Positions 3,368 through 32,253 of a DNA stretch of 38,703 nucleotides are shown one piece after another. The translations under genes were made by a program, and so were the position numbers. The notes under the pieces are model-generated. The model had not been told where the DNA came from. It ran no database searches and worked only from the letters and a program-made list of their open reading frames with translations. Within the stretch, counting starts at the first letter, position 1. The number at the start of each line of letters is the position of its first letter. Source of the DNA: a virus (Duplodnaviria > Heunggongvirae > Uroviricota > Caudoviricetes); the IMG/VR virus record IMGVR_UViG_2724679538_000007, positions 1 through 38,703 of that record, one strand, 5' to 3'.

Positions 3368-3972
3368 TAAGCAGCCGCTCCTTCTAATTCGTCTCGTCTG
3401 ATGTTGTAAACGTCCTGCGCTTTGTGCTGCTCAGGTGTGCCTTCGAGCATCTTCCACGCTTTGGCGAACGCCTGTTTAAGCTCTTCTAAGGTGTTTTTCT
3501 GCATTGCTGCGTCAGTGAATGCTTTTAGAACCTGTTCAGGTGTAGGTGATAGTTTTGATTGCTTTGCTGCTGCGTTCTGCTGATGTTTATGCTCGTCGGT
3601 ATCTGCATCTTTCGCATCATCAATGCCGAACAAACCATTGAGGCAATACTTGCGTGCATAAGAGCTTGTAGCTCCCGTAACTTGTGCAGAATCCATTCCT
3701 TTCTTGCTTTCTTCCTCTCGTGCAAGAGCAGTTGCCGTATGACTGTTTTCGCCATCGGTAATAGTTGCCGTGGCTTTCACGTAATACCGATCACCAATCA
3801 ACACAACTTCATCGCTGATTGATAAAAACAGGCCATTCAGTAACGGCTTAACGCCTTCAAGAATGTCTTCGCAGCTTCTGTATTTATATTTACCGAATGA
3901 GTTGTACTGATTCTTTGGCGCGTTCAGATTCTCCTGAATAGCTGCCAGTCTTGCGTAAAATTCTTTGCTCAT
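3367..3972 (-). CDS. erf: Erf family single-strand annealing recombinase (P22 Erf-like, about 201 aa)
   Basis: MSKEFYARLAAIQENLNAPKNQYNSFGKYKYRSCEDILEGVKPLL ... YYVKATATITDGENSH ... YARKYCLNGLFGIDD matches P22 Erf as I recall it; genuine ATG at 3972 (track ORF starts at an upstream TTG). Confidence 0.9.
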   Translation of the reverse strand: MSKEFYARLAAIQENLNAPKNQYNSFGKYKYRSCEDILEGVKPLLNGLFLSISDEVVLIGDRYYVKATATITDGENSHTATALAREEESKKGMDSAQVTGATSSYARKYCLNGLFGIDDAKDADTDEHKHQQNAAAKQSKLSPTPEQVLKAFTDAAMQKNTLEELKQAFAKAWKMLEGTPEQHKAQDVYNIRRDELEGAAA

Positions 3973-4073
3973 ATGATTGTTCTCAGAATGGACACGGCCC
4001 AAGGAAATAACGCTGATTTAATACTTCGACTCGGGACAAGTTAAGGCATACCCGCATTCCTTCGCGGTCACCA

Positions 4074-7071: not shown

Positions 7072-7788
7072 TCAAACCAGTCTGAGTTTTGTCTCAATTG
7101 CAACGCCTATAATCTTGCAGTTTCCATTGATTGGCACGAGAGGCCATGCAGGATTAAGTCCCTTGAGGTATTTATTTCCGCCGTCGATTATCAGCTTCTT
7201 GAATGTTGCTTCGTTAGAGTCAGAAAGTTTTGCTATGACCAAGCTGCCGTTGATCGCCTCCCTTCCGGTATCGAAAAGAACGAATGTTCCCTCTGGAATG
7301 CTTAACCCAACCGGTGCCGTCATTGAATCACCTTCCACTTTAAGCCAGAACGCATTACCTTGAATATGCGCGTCAGACTCAAGCCAAACATCTATGTCTT
7401 TAATGGTGTATGGTTCGCATGCTTCACACCACGAGCCAGCCTGGATACTGCTTAACACCGGATACCTCTTTCCTGCTCTGTATTCCCCTGCATACCTTAC
7501 GTTGGCATCGCTCTTAAGGCTTTCTGCCTGTTCTGCAACCTTGGCAGCAATTGACTGGCTAAAATCAGCAATTGAGACTTGCAACAATCGTGCAAAACCA
7601 GATGCAACCTCAACGTTTAGCGCATTTCTGCCATTAAGATAATGCCCTACCGCTCCTTGGGTGATACCCAGTTCATCAGCGATTGAGTATTGGGTTATTC
7701 CCAATTCTTTCTTTTTTGACTCATACAAAGCCTTAAGCCGCTTAGCGTCTTCCAGCTGTTCTGTCGTCAGTGATTTTTTATTTTCCAT
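7072..7788 (-). CDS. cI: CI-type prophage repressor (HTH N-domain plus LexA/S24-like autocleavage C-domain, 238 aa)
   Basis: LTTEQLEDAKRLKALYESKKKELGITQ and FWLKVEGDSMTAP ... FKKLI ... LNP parallel lambda CI ([47 protein letters not shown]). Confidence 0.93.
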   Translation of the reverse strand: MENKKSLTTEQLEDAKRLKALYESKKKELGITQYSIADELGITQGAVGHYLNGRNALNVEVASGFARLLQVSIADFSQSIAAKVAEQAESLKSDANVRYAGEYRAGKRYPVLSSIQAGSWCEACEPYTIKDIDVWLESDAHIQGNAFWLKVEGDSMTAPVGLSIPEGTFVLFDTGREAINGSLVIAKLSDSNEATFKKLIIDGGNKYLKGLNPAWPLVPINGNCKIIGVAIETKLRLV

Positions 7789-7865: not shown

Positions 7866-7894
7866 TTGTTCATGGTTAATAACGGAGAGTGCAT

Positions 7895-8089
7895 ATGATT
7901 CGAATGACACTTGCCGATTACGCCAAAATCCATGGACAGGCTAAAGCAGCCAGTGACTTTGGTGTAATCCAGTGCGCTATCAGCAAGGCCATTCTGGCAG
8001 GCCGTAACATTATGGTTACGGTAAAGCCTGATGGCAGTGTGATTGGAGAGGAAGTTCGTCCTTTCCCAAGCAACAAGAAAAACAAATAG
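7895..8089 (+). CDS. cro: Cro repressor (64 aa)
   Basis: [62 protein letters not shown] parallels lambda Cro; GGAGAG RBS; track ORF starts at an upstream GTG. Confidence 0.9.
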
Positions 8090-8197: not shown

Positions 8198-8476
8198 ATG
8201 CAACTTACAAGTACTCGCAAGAAAGCGAATGCAATTACAAGCAACATCCTGAATCGAATTGCTGTACGTGGTCAGCGAAAGGTTGCCGACGCGTTAGGGA
8301 TTAATGAATCGCAAATTTCGCGATGGAAAGACAGCTTCATCCCAAAAATGGGAATGCTTCTGGCTGTTCTTGAATGGGGTGTTGAAGACGAGGAGTTGGC
8401 GGAACTGGCTAAGAAAGTAGCAAGAATGCTGACAAAAGAAAAAGCCCCGAAGAACGGCGAATTCTTCGAGGCCTGA
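8198..8476 (+). CDS. cII: CII transcriptional activator (92 aa)
   Basis: [57 protein letters not shown] parallels lambda CII ([49 protein letters not shown]). Confidence 0.9.
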
Positions 8477-8510
8477 TGTAGAAAGACTGGATCAATCCAC
8501 AGGAGTAATT

Positions 8511-8657
8511 ATGACAAAACAACTCAGTCCTTACCAGGACAAAATTCACAAACACATACTACGTGATCGCTTCCTGTCCAGCTTCAAGCAGCCTGGTCGA
8601 TTCCGGGCTGAGTTGGAAAAAGTGAAGCTGATGCAGAAGGAGAAAGGTCATGAGTAA
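8511..8657 (+). CDS. Hypothetical small ORF (48 aa) between cII and O
   Basis: ATG with AGGAG RBS; its stop overlaps the O start; not in track (under 60 aa). Confidence 0.3.
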
Positions 8658-9510
8658 TCTTGCAACCGTAACACATTTAAGGCCTTCACAACGGCCTGTG
8701 GAGCGTCGTGTGGCAGAAGTTGAAGATGGTTATACCCGTCTTGCAAATGCCCTGTATGAAGAGCTTATCGGCGCAGATTTAACGAAAAATCAGAGCAAGG
8801 TTGCCCACGCCATATGCCGTAAAACATACGGCTACGGTAAAAAGATGGATCGCATCTCTGATAGTCAGTTAGCTCAAATTACCAGGCTGCCAAGACAGAA
8901 GGTAAACAAGGCCAAGAATGAGCTTATCGCGATGAAGGTTATCCTTCGCGAAGGCCAGCAAATCGGGCCTAACAAGAACATCGAGGAATGGCAAATCGAA
9001 GGGTGTCACTACTCTGGTGATAATGTCACTGCATTGGTGACAAAAAGTGTCACCAAAACGGTGACAGCGCTGTCACCAAAACAGGGACACACAAAAGAAA
9101 CTATTACAAAAGAAAAAAGAAATAATAAAAACACTATGTCCGAAAGTGTTCGGACGGAGTGTGAAAAATCACCTGACCGTCACGAAGAAACCGACAAGGC
9201 ATTCGAGGAAATATTCTGGTGTGCAGGCATGCGGAAAGCCGGGAAGAAAAACGCAGCTTCGGCATTCAGAACACAGTTCAGGGAATGGCGTAAAACTACC
9301 AGGGGTACGGCAAGCGAGTTTGCCACGATGTTGGCAGAAGACATCGCATGCAGGAATGGTAAGCAGTTCGGATTCGACAGGTTGTTACCATCGAGCTACC
9401 TGAACGGTCAACGCTGGAACGACGAAAAGCCAGAAACCATTCAACCACAATCCAAACCATCATCCGCAATCACCGTATCGAAAACTGGCTACGTGTTTTT
9501 CGACAGGTGA
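8650..9510 (+). CDS. Replication initiator, lambda O family (286 aa)
   Basis: N-terminal domain parallels lambda O (DGY.RL...GADLTK.Q.KV...RKTYG..K.MDRI.DSQL..IT.LP ... GPNKNI.EW); contains the ori iterons internally. Confidence 0.9.
9003..9135 (+). repeat. Origin of replication: inverted/direct iterons (GTGACA/TGTCACC units) followed by an AT-rich tract
   Basis: ggtgacaaaaagtgtcaccaaaacggtgacagcgctgtcaccaaaacagggacac followed by acaaaagaaactattacaaaagaaaaaagaaataataaaaacac; same layout as ori-lambda inside O. Confidence 0.6.
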
Positions 9511-9513
9511 ACC

Positions 9514-9621
9514 ATGAAATCAAAAATCAAATCGCTACTGGTCGCTGGTTATAACCACGGCTGGTTAAGTATTTCATTTGTCGATTTCTGGTTTAAAAAT
9601 CTCAATCTGAGGGAATCATGA
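9514..9621 (+). CDS. Hypothetical small ORF (35 aa) between O and the helicase gene
   Basis: ATG 4 nt after the O stop; TGA overlaps the helicase ATG (ATGA); no clear RBS. Confidence 0.25.
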   Translation: MKSKIKSLLVAGYNHGWLSISFVDFWFKNLNLRES

Positions 9622-11498
9622 CGCCAAGTGAACTTAGCGACCTGCTTTGGGCGCAGGTTGACAGGGTGGCTCCGCACCTGTTGCCAAACGGCAAGAAAGA
9701 GGGGCATGAGTGGGTTGCCGGTAACGTCAACGGCGACAAGGGAAACAGCCTTAAGGTCAACCTTAGCGGCAAGAAAAAATGGGCTGATTTCGCCGAGGGA
9801 GACGGCGGTGACATGCTTGATTTGTGGATGGCATGTCGTGGAATTAACCTGCATCAGGCTATGCAGGAAGCGAAAGCATTTCTCGGTATCAAGGATGACG
9901 ATCACCATTTCGATGCCAAACGTGAGAAAAAATTCTCCAGACCTGATCGCAAGAAAATCGCCCGCTACGTTACCAGAACAGAATCCCATCTTGAGTACCT
10001 GCAATCGCGTGGCATATCGCCAGAAATCGTAAAGCGCTACGAGGTTGTCAGCGGCAAGGTGTGGAATGGAGAGCGGGAACTGGATGCTCTGGTGATTCCG
10101 TACAAACGCGATGGTGAGTTGTTGCAGGTCAAGCGAATCAGCACTGAGCGCCCGGACGGGAAGAAAGTCATTATGGCAGAAGGTGATTGCGAACCTTGTC
10201 TGTTCGGATGGCAGGCTCTGGACGCTGGCGTGAGGGCGGTTGTACTTTGCGAAGGCGAAATTGATTGTATGAGCTATGCGCAATACGGCATCTCGGCGTT
10301 ATCCGTGCCGTTTGGTGGCGGGAAAGGCGCTAAGCAACAGTGGATTGAGTTTGAGTATCACAACCTCGACAGGTTTGAGGAAATATTCATCTCGATGGAT
10401 GTTGATGATGTTGGTCGTGAAGCCGCAAGGGAAATCGCAAGCCGACTCGGTGAACATCGTTGCCGTCTTGTTACTCTGCCGTACAAAGACATCAACGAAT
10501 GCCTGATGAACGGTGTTACCGAGGATGAAATCTGGCAGTACATCGGCACGGCATCCTACTTCGATCCTGAAGAACTCTACAGCGCGCGAGAGTTTTACCA
10601 GGACACTATCAACGCTTTCTACGGCAAGCAGCAGTATCTGTTTAATCCACCGTGGGAATCTCTGGCAGATAAATTCCAGTTCCGTGAGGCCGAGTTGACG
10701 CTGGTCAATGGTGTGAACGGTCACGGAAAAACGGAGGTTGTCGGGCATATGGCACTTGAGGCAATGCGTCAGGGTGTGAAGACGTGCATCGCGTCACTTG
10801 AGCTGAAGCCAGGCATTCTCCTTAAGCGACTTACCCGTCAGGCGACGTGCTGCAAGATGCCGCCAGTGCTGGAAATTGACTCTGCATTTAAATTTTATGA
10901 CGAAAGACTTTGGGTGTTTGGCCTGACCGGAACGGCGAAAGCCGACAGGCTGATCGAAATATTCGACTACGCTCGCCGCCGATACGGCATCCAGTTATTC
11001 ATCATCGACAGCCTGATGAAATGTGGCATAGGCGACGATGACTATAACGGGCAGAAGGCGTTTGTTGACTCGATTTGCGATTTCAAAAACAAAACAAACT
11101 CCCACGTCATTCTCGTTACTCACTCGCGAAAAGGTGACAGCGAAGAAAAACCAACCGGGAAAATGGACGTAAAAGGCTCTGGAGCGATAACAGACCTGAC
11201 AGACAACCTTTTCATCATCTGGCGTAACAAGGCTCGCGAGAGAGCGTTACAGAGAGTTCAGAGTGGTGAAAAGATGTCAGAGAAGGACGAACAGCTACTG
11301 GCATCTCCGGCATCTGTTTTGATGCTTGAAAAACAACGTAACGGCGAAGGTTGGGAAGGTGGTGTCCCGTTGTTCCTTGACGAGCAATCGCACCAGTTCC
11401 TGCAACTTGAATCAGGATCGCCATATAGCTACATCGCCAATATGCCGAAATCGGAATATGACGAGGCGTGGCGACAGGAAAACGTGACGGAGTATTAA
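9618..11498 (+). CDS. Replicative primase-helicase-like protein (626 aa) in the lambda P position
   Basis: Walker A TLVNGVNGHGKTEVV and Walker B-like LFIIDSLMK in the C-terminal half; N-terminal half with primase/TOPRIM-like acidic motifs (VVLCEGEIDCMSY, ISMDVDDVG); GAGGG RBS. Confidence 0.8.
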   Translation: MTPSELSDLLWAQVDRVAPHLLPNGKKEGHEWVAGNVNGDKGNSLKVNLSGKKKWADFAEGDGGDMLDLWMACRGINLHQAMQEAKAFLGIKDDDHHFDAKREKKFSRPDRKKIARYVTRTESHLEYLQSRGISPEIVKRYEVVSGKVWNGERELDALVIPYKRDGELLQVKRISTERPDGKKVIMAEGDCEPCLFGWQALDAGVRAVVLCEGEIDCMSYAQYGISALSVPFGGGKGAKQQWIEFEYHNLDRFEEIFISMDVDDVGREAAREIASRLGEHRCRLVTLPYKDINECLMNGVTEDEIWQYIGTASYFDPEELYSAREFYQDTINAFYGKQQYLFNPPWESLADKFQFREAELTLVNGVNGHGKTEVVGHMALEAMRQGVKTCIASLELKPGILLKRLTRQATCCKMPPVLEIDSAFKFYDERLWVFGLTGTAKADRLIEIFDYARRRYGIQLFIIDSLMKCGIGDDDYNGQKAFVDSICDFKNKTNSHVILVTHSRKGDSEEKPTGKMDVKGSGAITDLTDNLFIIWRNKARERALQRVQSGEKMSEKDEQLLASPASVLMLEKQRNGEGWEGGVPLFLDEQSHQFLQLESGSPYSYIANMPKSEYDEAWRQENVTEY

Positions 11499-11526
11499 AT
11501 GACCATCTACATCACTGAGCTAATAA

Positions 11527-11559
11527 CAGGCCTGCTGGTAATCGCAGGCCTTTTTATTT
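11527..11559 (+). terminator. Rho-independent terminator (tR2-like) after the replication genes
   Basis: CAGGCCTGC-tggtaatc-GCAGGCCT followed by TTTTTATTT. Confidence 0.65.
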
Positions 11560-11575
11560 GGGGGAGAGGGAAGTC

Positions 11576-12016
11576 ATGAAAAAACTAACCTTTGAAATTC
11601 GATCTCCAGCACATCAGCAAAACGCTATTCACGCGGTACAGCAAATTCTTCCAGACCCAACCAAACCAATCGTAGTAACCATTCAGGAACGCAACCGCAG
11701 CTTAGACCAGAATCGAAAGCTTTGGGCTTGCCTTGGTGACGTCTCTCGTCAGGTTGAATGGCATGGTCGCTGGCTGGATGCAGAAAGCTGGAAGTGTGTG
11801 TTTACCGCAGCATTAAAGCAGCAGGACGTTGTTCCTAACCTTGCCGGGAATGGCTTTGTGGTAATAGGCCAGTCAACCAGCAGGATGCGTGTAGGCGAAT
11901 TTGCGGAGCTATTAGAGCTTATACAGGCATTCGGTACAGAGCGTGGCGTTAAGTGGTCAGACGAAGCGCGACTGGCTCTGGAGTGGAAAGCAAGATGGGG
12001 AGACAGGGCGGCATGA
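11576..12016 (+). CDS. ninB: NinB (Orf-family recombination mediator, 146 aa)
   Basis: [76 protein letters not shown] matches lambda NinB as I recall it. Confidence 0.9.
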
Positions 12017-29909: not shown

Positions 29910-31753
29910 TGAAAGTAACTGCAAACGGTAAGACATTTACCTTCCCTGATGGTACGAGCACGGAAGATATTGGCACCGCCATTGATGAGTATTTTGCTGG
30001 TCAGGCTGTTCAGCAACAAACAGTTAATCAGGTCAATAATGAACCAGCACGTGAAGAACCATCATTGATGCAACAAGCTGGCGATTGGCTCACAGGTGGT
30101 CAAAGTGCAGGGCAAATTGCAGAGCAGGCTGGTCGTGGTCTGGTAAACATACCATTTGACGTATTGCAGGGTGGCGCAAGTCTGATTAATGCAATCAGCC
30201 AGGGGCTTGGTGGCCCCAAGGTTTTGGACGATGTCTATCGTCCAGTAGATCGACCAACAGACCCTTATGCGCAAGCTGGAGAAACAATTGGCGGGTATTT
30301 AGTTCCAGGAGTTGGAACGGCAGGAAGCATGGCTATTGGATCACTGGCAGAGGCCGCAAATCAGAAAGGCGATTTCGCACAAAATGCAGCTAAAAATGCC
30401 GGAGTTAACCTTGCCGCTCAGGGTGTTCTTTCCGCAGCAGCAAAGGGAATAGGGCGTGGAATAACGGCTATAAAAGGTGATATTGCGCCAGAAGTGGCGA
30501 AGAAAATTGCCACATCAGAATCGATGGGCGTGACACCAATGACATCTGATGTTATCCCGCCGAAAAATGCTTTCACTCGCGGACTTACTCAGGATGCTGA
30601 GGGGGCTTTGCTCGGGACAGGCTCAAAGCGAGCGGAGCAATATGCAACGCGTAGTAAGCTGGTAAGCAATTATTTTGACCGTTTTGGTGAGTACAACCCT
30701 GATGATGTGGTGAAATCTCTTACCACCACGTTAAGGGGGCGGAAGGATGCCGCTGGCGCTGTTATCAATGACGTCACCAATAAAATGGGTAATGCCGCAG
30801 TTGATACCACAAATACCATGAATGCTCTGAATACAGCGATCGCAAGACAGGAACGGCTTGGGACGTCTGCCAATCAAAGCCTGCTTACATCCTTGCGTAA
30901 CCTACGTGAAGAATTAGCAAACCCTGCAACTGATTTGGATGTTACGTTTGATCTCTTGCGTCAGCACAGAACAGCATTTAGATCTAATGTTCAGGGAGAT
31001 GCTATGGTCTTCCCCAACCAGGCAAAAGCAGCTACCAATATGGTAGAGAATGCAATGTCAAAAGACCTTCGTAACGCAGTTGCTAAAAACCTCGGTGCAT
31101 CAGACGCAGCAAAATACCTTAAAGCAAATTCCGATTATGCAAACGTTTATAATAAGGTGCTTAATAAAAACATTGCCAACAAGCTCAACAAGGCAAGCAG
31201 TGAAGCCAGTCCTGAACTTATAAATACCGTTGTATTAAGCAGAAAACCATCTGACGTGAAACGAATCTGGAGCGCACTGGATGATAAGGGGAAAGATGCT
31301 ATGCGTGCAGCTTACGTCAGCAAAATAGCGGAAAAGGCCGGGGACTCTCCAGCCAAGTTCATCACTGAAGTTAATAAGCTGAAATCTCAGTCAGGCGGTG
31401 AAATTTACAACACTATTTTTTCTGGAAAGCACATGAAAGAGCTTGATGCTCTTCATGAAGTTCTACAGCAAACAGCAAGGTCAGACACCGCAAATGTAGT
31501 AACTCAGACGGGGCAATCGCAAGCCAACAGGATAAGGACGATTGGCGCAACTGCGACCCTTGGCGTATCAATGGGGCTTGAGGCTGGTTTTGGTGCAATG
31601 ATGCGCTTGTATGAGTCCAAAGCAGCAAGGAATGCTCTCTTACGTCTGGCAAACACTAAAACTGGAACGCCAGCTTATGAAAGAGCGCTAAATAATGCTG
31701 CAAATGCGATACGCCCTATACTTTCAAGCCAAATTACAGCAGAACAGCAATAA
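29906..31753 (+). CDS. Ejection protein, P22 gp16-like (615 aa)
   Basis: Synteny and size (P22 gp16 is about 609 aa); start overlaps the gp20 stop. Confidence 0.75.
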
Positions 31754-31767
31754 AAGATAAGATATAA

Positions 31768-32253
31768 CTACCTGATATTACTGCTACTGTTGCATGTTAC
31801 CGTGTTTCCAAATCCTGAATTGCAGTTTGTATATGTGTCAACGCGTGTTGGGTAAGGTTGAGTTATAACAGGCTGGCGCGCTTTTTGCTCGATCGCTTGC
31901 ATTGTGTTTACAGCCTGATAATTCAATAAAGCCTGCTGGAATGCTTGGCTTTGTGCTATTTGTTGGGCTTGTTCTTGGCTTTGTAATTGAACATAAAGAT
32001 TCTGAAGCTCAAGTCTTGCCTGTGCGTCACTTATCTTGCCTTCATCGACACCTTGCCCGAGCATCTTTGCAGCAAGGACATACAGCTTAGGTGTTGGTGC
32101 TGATGCCATGCGTGAGTCGTTCTTCACACTGGCATCAAGGCAATTAGCCATATCGCTAAGCTTTTGATAGCGTTGTTCGCAACTTGCTTGATAGTCACTT
32201 ACTTTTGCGCATCCAACCAGAAGAAGCGGGATAATTAACAGTGATTTTTTCAT
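31768..32253 (-). CDS. Lipoprotein (161 aa), antisense to the late operon; candidate superinfection-exclusion factor
   Basis: Signal peptide plus lipobox MKKSLLIIPLLLVGC; AAGGAG RBS; occupies the P22 sieA/immI position between gene 16 and the tailspike. Confidence 0.7.
   Translation of the reverse strand: MKKSLLIIPLLLVGCAKVSDYQASCEQRYQKLSDMANCLDASVKNDSRMASAPTPKLYVLAAKMLGQGVDEGKISDAQARLELQNLYVQLQSQEQAQQIAQSQAFQQALLNYQAVNTMQAIEQKARQPVITQPYPTRVDTYTNCNSGFGNTVTCNSSSNIR

Follow-up and report, generated by a model that had tools for sequence, protein, structure and literature searches.

The virus record IMGVR_UViG_2724679538_000007 (Caudoviricetes) was analysed over positions 1 to 38,703, and this whole stretch of 38,703 nucleotides is referred to below as the window. 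The region considered here, 8511-11498 on the plus strand, corresponds to the early-right replication module of a temperate lambdoid phage of P22-like (Lederbergvirus) type, of the kind first annotated in the Salmonella phage ES18. It combines an initiator related to that of phage lambda with a large primase-helicase, and open reading frame (ORF) calling places four ORFs there in a tight series:

8511..8657, plus strand: orf48, 48 residues, Pfam DUF2740 (PF10872), phrog_1913
8650..9510, plus strand: O-type replication initiator, 286 residues, with a winged-helix origin-binding N-domain, an origin-encoded linker and a C-domain unrelated to that of lambda O
9514..9621, plus strand: orf35, 35 residues, phrog_21848
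9618..11498, plus strand: primase-helicase of the T7 gp4/Twinkle family, 626 residues, phrog_239

The stop codon of orf48 overlaps the start of O by 8 nucleotides, O and orf35 are separated by a gap of 3 nucleotides, and the stop of orf35 and the start of the 626-residue gene share the overlap ATGA. A Shine-Dalgarno-like purine run lies 4-8 nucleotides 5′ of each of the four genes, and the genes are tightly coupled in translation. No internal promoter is claimed, since a promoter scan gave fewer sigma-70-like sites than were found in shuffled sequences.

The 626-residue primase-helicase

As judged from its sequence matches and modelled fold, the product of the last gene is a primase-helicase of the T7 gp4/Twinkle family with intact catalytic motifs, and not a helicase loader. 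Pfam assigns Toprim_2 to residues 209-296 (E-value 3.1e-12) and AAA_25/DnaB_C to residues 355-594, and in PHROGs the protein matches phrog_239, 'DNA primase/helicase', with an E-value of 1.5e-171. A phmmer search of the PDB returns T7 gp4 (E-value 2.7e-23) and Twinkle (E-value 6.5e-14), and BLASTP against T7 gp4A gives 26% identity over 371 residues (E-value 2e-25). The AlphaFold2 (AF2) model of the protein has a predicted local distance difference test (pLDDT) score of 90.3. A Foldseek search of the PDB puts T7 gp4 (5ikn; E-value 6e-27, template modelling (TM) score 0.74 on the target) and Twinkle (7t8c; E-value 2e-25) at the top, with DnaB and the zinc-binding and RNA-polymerase domains of Aquifex DnaG (2au3) among the further best matches. 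The search of 1.84 billion cluster representatives yielded 8368 relatives at E-values of at most 1e-3 and 854 at E-values of at most 1e-30, and in the list of 150 of them a length of about 600 residues is typical. The domain order is that of T7 gp4 and Twinkle, namely an N-terminal ribbon, an RNA-polymerase/TOPRIM domain, a linker and a superfamily 4 (SF4) helicase domain, and the catalytic residues align. The following parts can be delimited:

9618..9902, plus strand: zinc-ribbon-like N-domain without zinc ligands, residues 1-95, modelled as five short strands followed by two helices
10242..10505, plus strand: TOPRIM domain, residues 209-296, with E212-G-E214-x-D216, D261-x-D263 and D291
10680..11399, plus strand: SF4 (DnaB/RecA-like) helicase domain, residues 355-594, with Walker A at 10710-10733 (GVNGHGKT), E395, Walker B D464, H502, K505 and R574

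Residue conservation was assessed in an alignment of 41 family representatives that are 33-60% identical to the window protein. The helicase domain contains the complete motif set, with the Walker A motif (G365-VNGHGK-T372), the catalytic glutamate, Walker B, the motif H3 histidine and the arginine finger. Six of its residues (G365, K371, E395, D464, H502 and K505) do not vary, T372 is invariant or nearly so, and 40 of the 41 sequences have R574. The acidic residues of the TOPRIM domain (E212, E214, D216, D261, D263 and D291) are kept in 37-40 of the 41 representatives and align with the EGEID, DMDEAG and KDAN segments of T7 gp4.

The N-domain is where the window protein departs from T7 gp4. 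The T7 protein has four zinc-domain cysteines, whereas none such are present in the window protein, which has one cysteine (C73) in its first 75 residues. No conserved Cys or His column is found in the N-domain across the 41 representatives, and neither zf-CHC2 nor Prim_Zn_Ribbon of Pfam matches the 626-residue protein. The Cys4 zinc site of T7 gp4 is needed for template-directed priming. A primase activity in spite of the zinc-less N-domain is therefore presumed here and not assured. The family-wide lack of Cys/His ligands would agree with a protein that functions as a helicase only, with a primase half that persists as a structural relic, like that of metazoan Twinkle, and with primers still laid down by the host DnaG, and Twinkle is indeed among the closest solved relatives. 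Yet the TOPRIM metal-binding residues have been kept almost throughout a family of merely 33-60% identity to the window protein, and eight residues of the N-domain (G35, G39, G42, S44, G51, D57, G64 and D65) are conserved in at least 90% of the representatives. The pattern indicates an active site that is maintained by selection and is not decaying, and because the TOPRIM ligands are conserved, a vestigial primase appears unlikely.

A role as a lambda P-like or DnaC-like loader for the host DnaB, which the gene name 'P' in some GenBank records (Min27, vB_EcoP_24B) would imply, is refuted by the domain and fold searches and hardly merits further consideration. Phage_lambda_P and DnaC-type loader families are absent from the Pfam, PHROG and NCBIfam matches of all four proteins. 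The protein matches T7 gp4, Twinkle and DnaB significantly in both sequence and fold, and Walker A, Walker B, H502 and the arginine finger are intact. The initial annotation had already held that the gene following O is not a lambda P gene and encodes Walker motifs, and that the phage may bring its own helicase-primase. Both statements agree with the Toprim_2 and DnaB_C/AAA_25 matches, the fold and the invariant helicase residues, which together describe an encoded gp4/Twinkle-type enzyme with intact catalytic motifs. The domain search that it had proposed for the 626-residue protein returns a primase-helicase and excludes a loader devoid of ATPase motifs. Its acidic primase/TOPRIM region is likewise present, but lies centrally, at residues 209-296, and not at the N-terminus, where the first ~95 residues are zinc-ribbon-like.

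Several variants of the gene were encountered elsewhere. The allele of Stx2a_F451 (L097:1501-4404) encodes 968 residues and, unlike that of the window, contains, like some other Stx alleles, a 342-residue intein (Hom_end_hint and LAGLIDADG_3), which separates K371 from T372 in the P-loop; the allele of the window is intein-free, with an intact insertion site at 10728-10733. Matches to the primase-helicase are split into pieces over a longer span in Min27, phiXuzhou21, phiKp_30, Stx2a_F403 and vB_EcoP_24B. In an Escherichia coli contig (JACYIN020000002; L087:2845-3963) a primase-helicase that shares 73% identity with the window protein is preceded by a 372-residue protein that has an N-terminal helix-turn-helix-like segment and metallophosphatase-like motifs (GDLLHSDG, GNHD and HHGH). 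This locus contains no O homologue and no orf35, an integrase is encoded nearby, and it may represent a different kind of mobile element that uses the same helicase. An unexpected host assignment for the module is that of the record of Elizabethkingia phage EKP1 (OM284015.1, ~30271-32246), attributed to a host of the Bacteroidota, in which homologues of orf35 and the primase-helicase are found with 49% and 59% identity, respectively.

The initiator gene and its internal origin

The N-terminal part of O is evidently of the lambda type. Pfam Phage_rep_O (PF04492) matches residues 20-114 with an E-value of 1.2e-37 (128.8 bits against a cut-off of 28.7), TIGR01610 matches the protein with an E-value of 1.7e-30 (105.3 bits against a cut-off of 45.5), and by BLASTP the protein is 49% identical to lambda O, with the similarity confined to residues 1-157. 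The features of the origin and of the remainder of the protein are as follows:

9004..9089, no strand: four 19-bp palindromic iterons, TGTCAC-N6-GGTGACA, with start-to-start spacings of 20, 24 and 23 bp
9090..9135, no strand: AT-rich, A-skewed origin tract, presumed DNA-unwinding element, GC content 17.5-30%
9131..9162, no strand: inverted repeat I6 with 14-bp arms, 86% complementary, immediately to the right of the AT-rich tract
9166..9507, plus strand: O C-terminal domain, residues ~173-286, with the conserved core FEEIFW..GMRK..K..A.SAF and a C-terminal tail

The iteron copies at 9004-9022, 9024-9042, 9048-9066 and 9071-9089 all lie inside the O gene and have 0-2 mismatches, and one further site with at most two mismatches exists in the whole 38.7-kb window. 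When up to three mismatches are allowed, 24 matches are found versus 8.7 ± 3.8 in shuffled sequences, and none of 100 shuffles reaches 24. The GC minimum of 17.5% falls at 9100-9139, where the A-skew is strong. When the origin is aligned with those of lambda and ES18, the iterons fall in the columns of the four annotated lambda iterons, and the AT-rich tract is almost base-for-base that of the lambda ori. The iteron sequence differs, being ATCCCTC...GAGGGA in both lambda and ES18, and the specificity is therefore different. The inverted repeat at 9131-9162 is common to ES18 and not found in lambda. The lambda-like O N-domain and the iterons with an AT-rich origin inside the O gene, which the initial annotation had placed at 9003-9135, are thus borne out in position as well as in layout. 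Three N-domain types are each paired with an iteron sequence of their own, and this covariation lends indirect support to a sequence-specific binding of the iterons by O.

One of these types, seen in the replication type Eru5 of Shiga toxin (Stx) phages, has an HTH_36 (PF13730) N-domain and 21-bp palindromic iteron units (GGGGCAGGAGCTGCCCC) that vary from one to five copies between otherwise near-identical phages. The units are translated as GGAGAA[RL], so that a change in copy number lengthens the HTH_36-type O by heptads (L005:3363-3468; ~20 IMG/VR loci).

The C-terminal domain of O has no Pfam family, and its sole match is phrog_33384, 'unknown function'. By BLASTP no similarity to lambda O is found beyond residue 157, and an hhalign comparison of the family profile of the domain with residues 151-299 of lambda O returns a probability of 0.07%; a diverged lambda O C-domain was rejected on these grounds. 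The O protein and ES18 gp59 are ~50% identical in their N-terminal halves and differ by 5 residues after residue 165. The same C-domain occurs fused to the window-type N-domain, to that of lambda specificity (ES18 and epsilon34) and to the HTH_36 type, and in phage Fraca a fourth N-domain type is joined to a related C-domain of 55% identity. Going by these alignments, the block consisting of the O C-domain, orf35 and the primase-helicase is found behind at least four different origin-binding N-domains.

The co-inherited block, the small ORFs and their surroundings

The limits of the block were mapped in 80 IMG/VR loci in which the primase-helicase is 99-100% identical to that of the window in protein and 97-99% in DNA, by recording where the DNA similarity to the window ends. 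On the left, similarity ends at 9126, inside the AT-rich tract, at 8486, just before orf48, at 8353/8354, inside cII, or further left, and it is lost exactly at 9126 in 25 of the 80 loci. On the right, the ends are at 11502, 11530, 11568 or 12016. Between 9126 and 11498 no joint was found in the 80 loci, if the insertion of a homing endonuclease at 9621-9630 in three of them is set aside, and the O C-domain is kept in 79, the remaining locus being cut by the contig end. The O C-domain, orf35 and the primase-helicase therefore travel as one block. Prophages of Pantoea, Proteus and Xenorhabdus, with helicases 69-76% identical to that of the window, likewise contain the O C-domain and orf35, which have diverged in step. 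The distribution of the joints corresponds to the classical lambdoid pattern, in which the origin-recognition and partner-recognition halves of O appear as separately exchangeable units.

The three insertions (L053, L066 and L084, ~3510-4000) consist of an HNH-type homing endonuclease ORF of ~165 residues situated exactly at the ATGA overlap of orf35 and the primase-helicase gene, taking the place of the initial helicase residues (MEAPLSPSELS...).

The 35-residue ORF matches phrog_21848 with an E-value of 4.4e-26 and corresponds to ES18 gp60; it has been left unannotated in several records, such as that of Sf101 (KJ832078) and those of Stx phages. Homologues of the same length and position are present in ES18, Pantoea, Proteus, Xenorhabdus, Fraca and SaltyDalty, and they keep the 35 codons and the motif MK..IK..L..GY.HG.LS...V..WF..L.L[RK]E. 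In divergent comparisons, with synonymous sites near saturation, nonsynonymous divergence (pN) is 0.20-0.29 versus a synonymous divergence (pS) of 0.58-0.85, and the pN values of its neighbours are comparable (0.21-0.36 for the O C-domain and 0.16-0.21 for the helicase). By tblastn, orf35 is found in 44 phage records, and their breakdown by organism is identical to that of the helicase records outside Vibrio and Pseudomonas; the relatives in the latter two groups have no orf35, and their initiator gene directly overlaps the start of the helicase. The case for orf35 as a real protein-coding gene under purifying selection is strong.

For orf48 the corresponding case is moderate. The ORF matches DUF2740 (PF10872) over model positions 1-43 of 43 with an E-value of 8.9e-29 (99.4 bits against a cut-off of 27), and a literature search returned no paper on this family. 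Homologous small ORFs with the motif HK(N/H)xLRD lie before the initiator gene of Proteus, Xenorhabdus and Pantoea prophages and of Stx-type loci, and homologues stand before window-type and HTH_36-type initiators alike. Purifying selection is weak, with pN 0.33-0.60 versus pS 0.61-0.88, and ES18 has an unrelated gene, gp58, in the same slot. On balance orf48, too, appears to be a conserved protein-coding gene.

That both micro-ORFs are without function as proteins, and serve for translation coupling only or are chance ORFs, seems quite improbable. The overlap of each with the next start codon, the fast evolution of orf48, the replacement of orf48 by an unrelated small gene in ES18, and the Vibrio and Pseudomonas relatives that manage with overlapping initiator and helicase genes instead of orf35 would all fit such a view. 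Opposed to it are the length and motif of orf35, maintained despite saturated synonymous sites, a constraint on orf35 equal to that on the neighbouring genes, the two other frames of the orf35 stretch, both full of stops, and the score of orf48 far above the threshold of a curated Pfam family. Of the earlier view of these ORFs, the overlaps with the neighbouring starts (8 nucleotides and ATGA) therefore stand, whereas a function as mere coupling devices gives way to that of conserved coding genes.

The module is preceded by a cI-like gene on the minus strand (7072-7788), cro (7889-8089) and cII (8198-8476), and is followed by a 26-residue 'ninA' ORF (11499-11579; phrog_5907) and then by ninB. 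Pfam assigns Cro, Phage_CII and NinB to the flanking genes, and the region therefore lies in the early-right operon of a lambdoid phage. The first 25 kb of the window are mosaic, with P22-like coliphages such as HZ41, IME10 and APC_JM3.2 as the closest relatives.

Two hairpins border the module. On the minus strand at 8442-8474, a hairpin with a stem of 14 pairs and a trailing T-run lies antisense to the 3′ end of cII. It matches the terminator of the lambda oop RNA in position and orientation, and the corresponding promoter would be at the orf48 start or within it. Rfam has no match at this hairpin, and in the scan of the whole window no Rfam family reaches its gathering threshold. On the plus strand at 11528-11551, within the 'ninA' ORF, the stop of the primase-helicase gene is directly followed by a GC-rich 8-pair hairpin plus TTTTTATTT, which resembles a tR2-type terminator. 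The conservation of the 'NinA' ORF may be due in part to this terminator-like structure.

Relation to known modules and the proposed mechanism

The module is already known by annotation and comparative genomics, having been annotated in ES18 since 2005 and also in epsilon34, mEp043, Sf101 and Stx phages. The DNA of the region is 98.7-98.9% identical to that of mEp043 and Sf101 over 99% of its length, with no meaningful difference inside the module, and 88% identical to that of ES18. In the ES18 GenBank record (AY736146; Casjens et al. 2005) gp59 is described as lambda gpO-like and has an internal 'rep_origin similar to lambda ori'; gp60 is entered as unknown, and the entry for gp61 reads 'putative primase/helicase; similar to phage T7 gene 4'. 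An ES18-type annotation of the module is repeated in the paper on epsilon34 (PMC2629481), and the same module is described in a paper on the Anderson typing phages (PMC10307801). The order of a small ORF, O with the origin, a 35-residue ORF, a 626-residue primase-helicase and ninA/ninB is the same in ES18 (genes 58-61), epsilon34 (genes 49-53), mEp043 and Sf101. The identity to ES18 is 96.7% for the O C-domain, 97% for orf35 and 93.9% for the primase-helicase. In contrast, the O N-domain of the window is ~50% identical to those of ES18 and epsilon34 and is combined with TGTCAC...GGTGACA instead of ATCCCTC...GAGGGA iterons, and a DUF2740 gene is present where ES18 has gp58.

The second group of close relatives comprises the Stx phages of replication type Eru5, with Stx2a_F403 as reference (Fagerlund et al. 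2022, PMC8951638). Stx2a_F403 is 98.3% identical to the window in the O C-domain and 71% in orf35, and ~97% identical in the DNA of the primase-helicase region. The block shared by the ES18 and Eru5 types is complete in the window, with the O C-domain, orf35 and the primase-helicase all present and contiguous.

The more distant systems are similar in parts. The window shares with lambda the O N-domain, the four in-gene iterons in register and the AT-rich tract, whereas lambda has P in place of the primase-helicase, an O C-domain without detectable similarity, a different iteron sequence and no equivalents of orf48 and orf35. T7 initiates from transcription-dependent origins; unlike its T7 counterpart, the window enzyme belongs to a temperate phage and is encoded beside an initiator that binds the origin sequence-specifically. 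In P22 the principle is similar, with the O-like initiator of gene 18 preceding a replicative helicase of the phage itself (gene 12) in the place of a loader (PMC10307801); gp12 resembles DnaB and has no primase domain. The primase-helicase of the present module has been called 'nonhomologous' to P22 gp12 (PMC10307801).

Taken together, the region probably represents a replication module in which a lambda O-type initiator works with the phage's own gp4-type primase-helicase. First, O would bind via its winged-helix N-domain to the four iterons inside its own gene and, in the manner of lambda O at ori-lambda, distort or melt the AT-rich tract next to them. In lambda a P:DnaB complex is then received by the C-domain of O. 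Next, the unrelated O C-domain of the window, possibly together with the orf35 product, would recruit the hexameric gp4/Twinkle-type primase-helicase of the phage to the opened origin, which presupposes a physical contact among the O C-domain, orf35 and the helicase. Finally, the primase-helicase would unwind the DNA and prime synthesis for the host polymerase. Initiation would thereby be independent of the host primosome proteins DnaB, DnaC and DnaG, and the P:DnaB hand-off of lambda would be bypassed.

Several points weigh against this model or parts of it. The N-domain of the primase-helicase is without the Cys4 zinc site of T7 gp4, as discussed above. No experimental study of the module was found, the literature searches having returned genome descriptions only. 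The AF2 model of O, built from a shallow alignment of 14 sequences, has a pLDDT of 42 and is unusable, and therefore nothing structural supports an interface between the O C-domain and the helicase. Moreover, the core of the O C-domain and the primase-helicase do occur apart. Homologues of the O C-domain were sought by tblastn against the phage collection; a word-indexed protein search with the domain returned almost solely partial fragments of near-identical proteins. Distant homologues of the core are present in initiators of Vibrio and Pseudomonas phages, where, at 37-44% identity, they adjoin a DnaC-like loader in Pseudomonas phage Skulduggery and a ~170-residue protein in Vibrio PVA1 and D59. 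A Pfam scan of the ~170-residue proteins gave a non-significant lambda P hint for PVA1 (E-value 0.063) and no match for D59. Conversely, the relatives of the primase-helicase in L087, L091 and vB_Pae_U7 follow initiators without the core.

A core specific to the primase-helicase was accordingly rejected, and since it stands beside other partners it is therefore regarded as a general initiator module. Partner specificity, if any, must on this evidence lie in the variable tail of O or in orf35. The suggestion of the initial annotation that a divergent O C-domain reflects a different partner thus gains from the co-inheritance as regards the partner, while 'divergent' becomes no detectable similarity and the core is not exclusive to the helicase. 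A tentative and rather doubtful elaboration is that the orf35 product is a dedicated, hitherto unrecognised assembly factor which, together with the conserved C-terminal tail of O, would dock or open the gp4-type ring at the O-bound origin, as a minimal 'loader'. If true, such a role would explain why recombination in enteric lambdoid and Stx (Eru5) phages never parts the O C-domain, orf35 and the helicase from one another, and it would provide a minimal loader for a class of helicases thought to self-load.

To the existing descriptions of the module the present analysis adds a confirmation of the annotation, the exact exchange joint at 9126, evidence that orf35 is under constraint and linked to the helicase, the family-wide zinc-less N-domain and the wider distribution of the O C-domain core. 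The module is widespread: the 90%-identity protein cluster of the helicase has 5632 member sequences, and 428 phage records share DNA with the region. Eru5 is the replication unit of Stx2a phages from severe enterohaemorrhagic E. coli (EHEC) outbreak strains (PMC8951638). If the phage brings its own helicase and primase, replication, and with it the dosage of toxin genes after induction, would be uncoupled from the host DnaB, DnaC and DnaG. Such host-uncoupled replication, if true, would be relevant to host range, to host toxicity of the lambda P type and to anti-phage systems that sense replication proteins.

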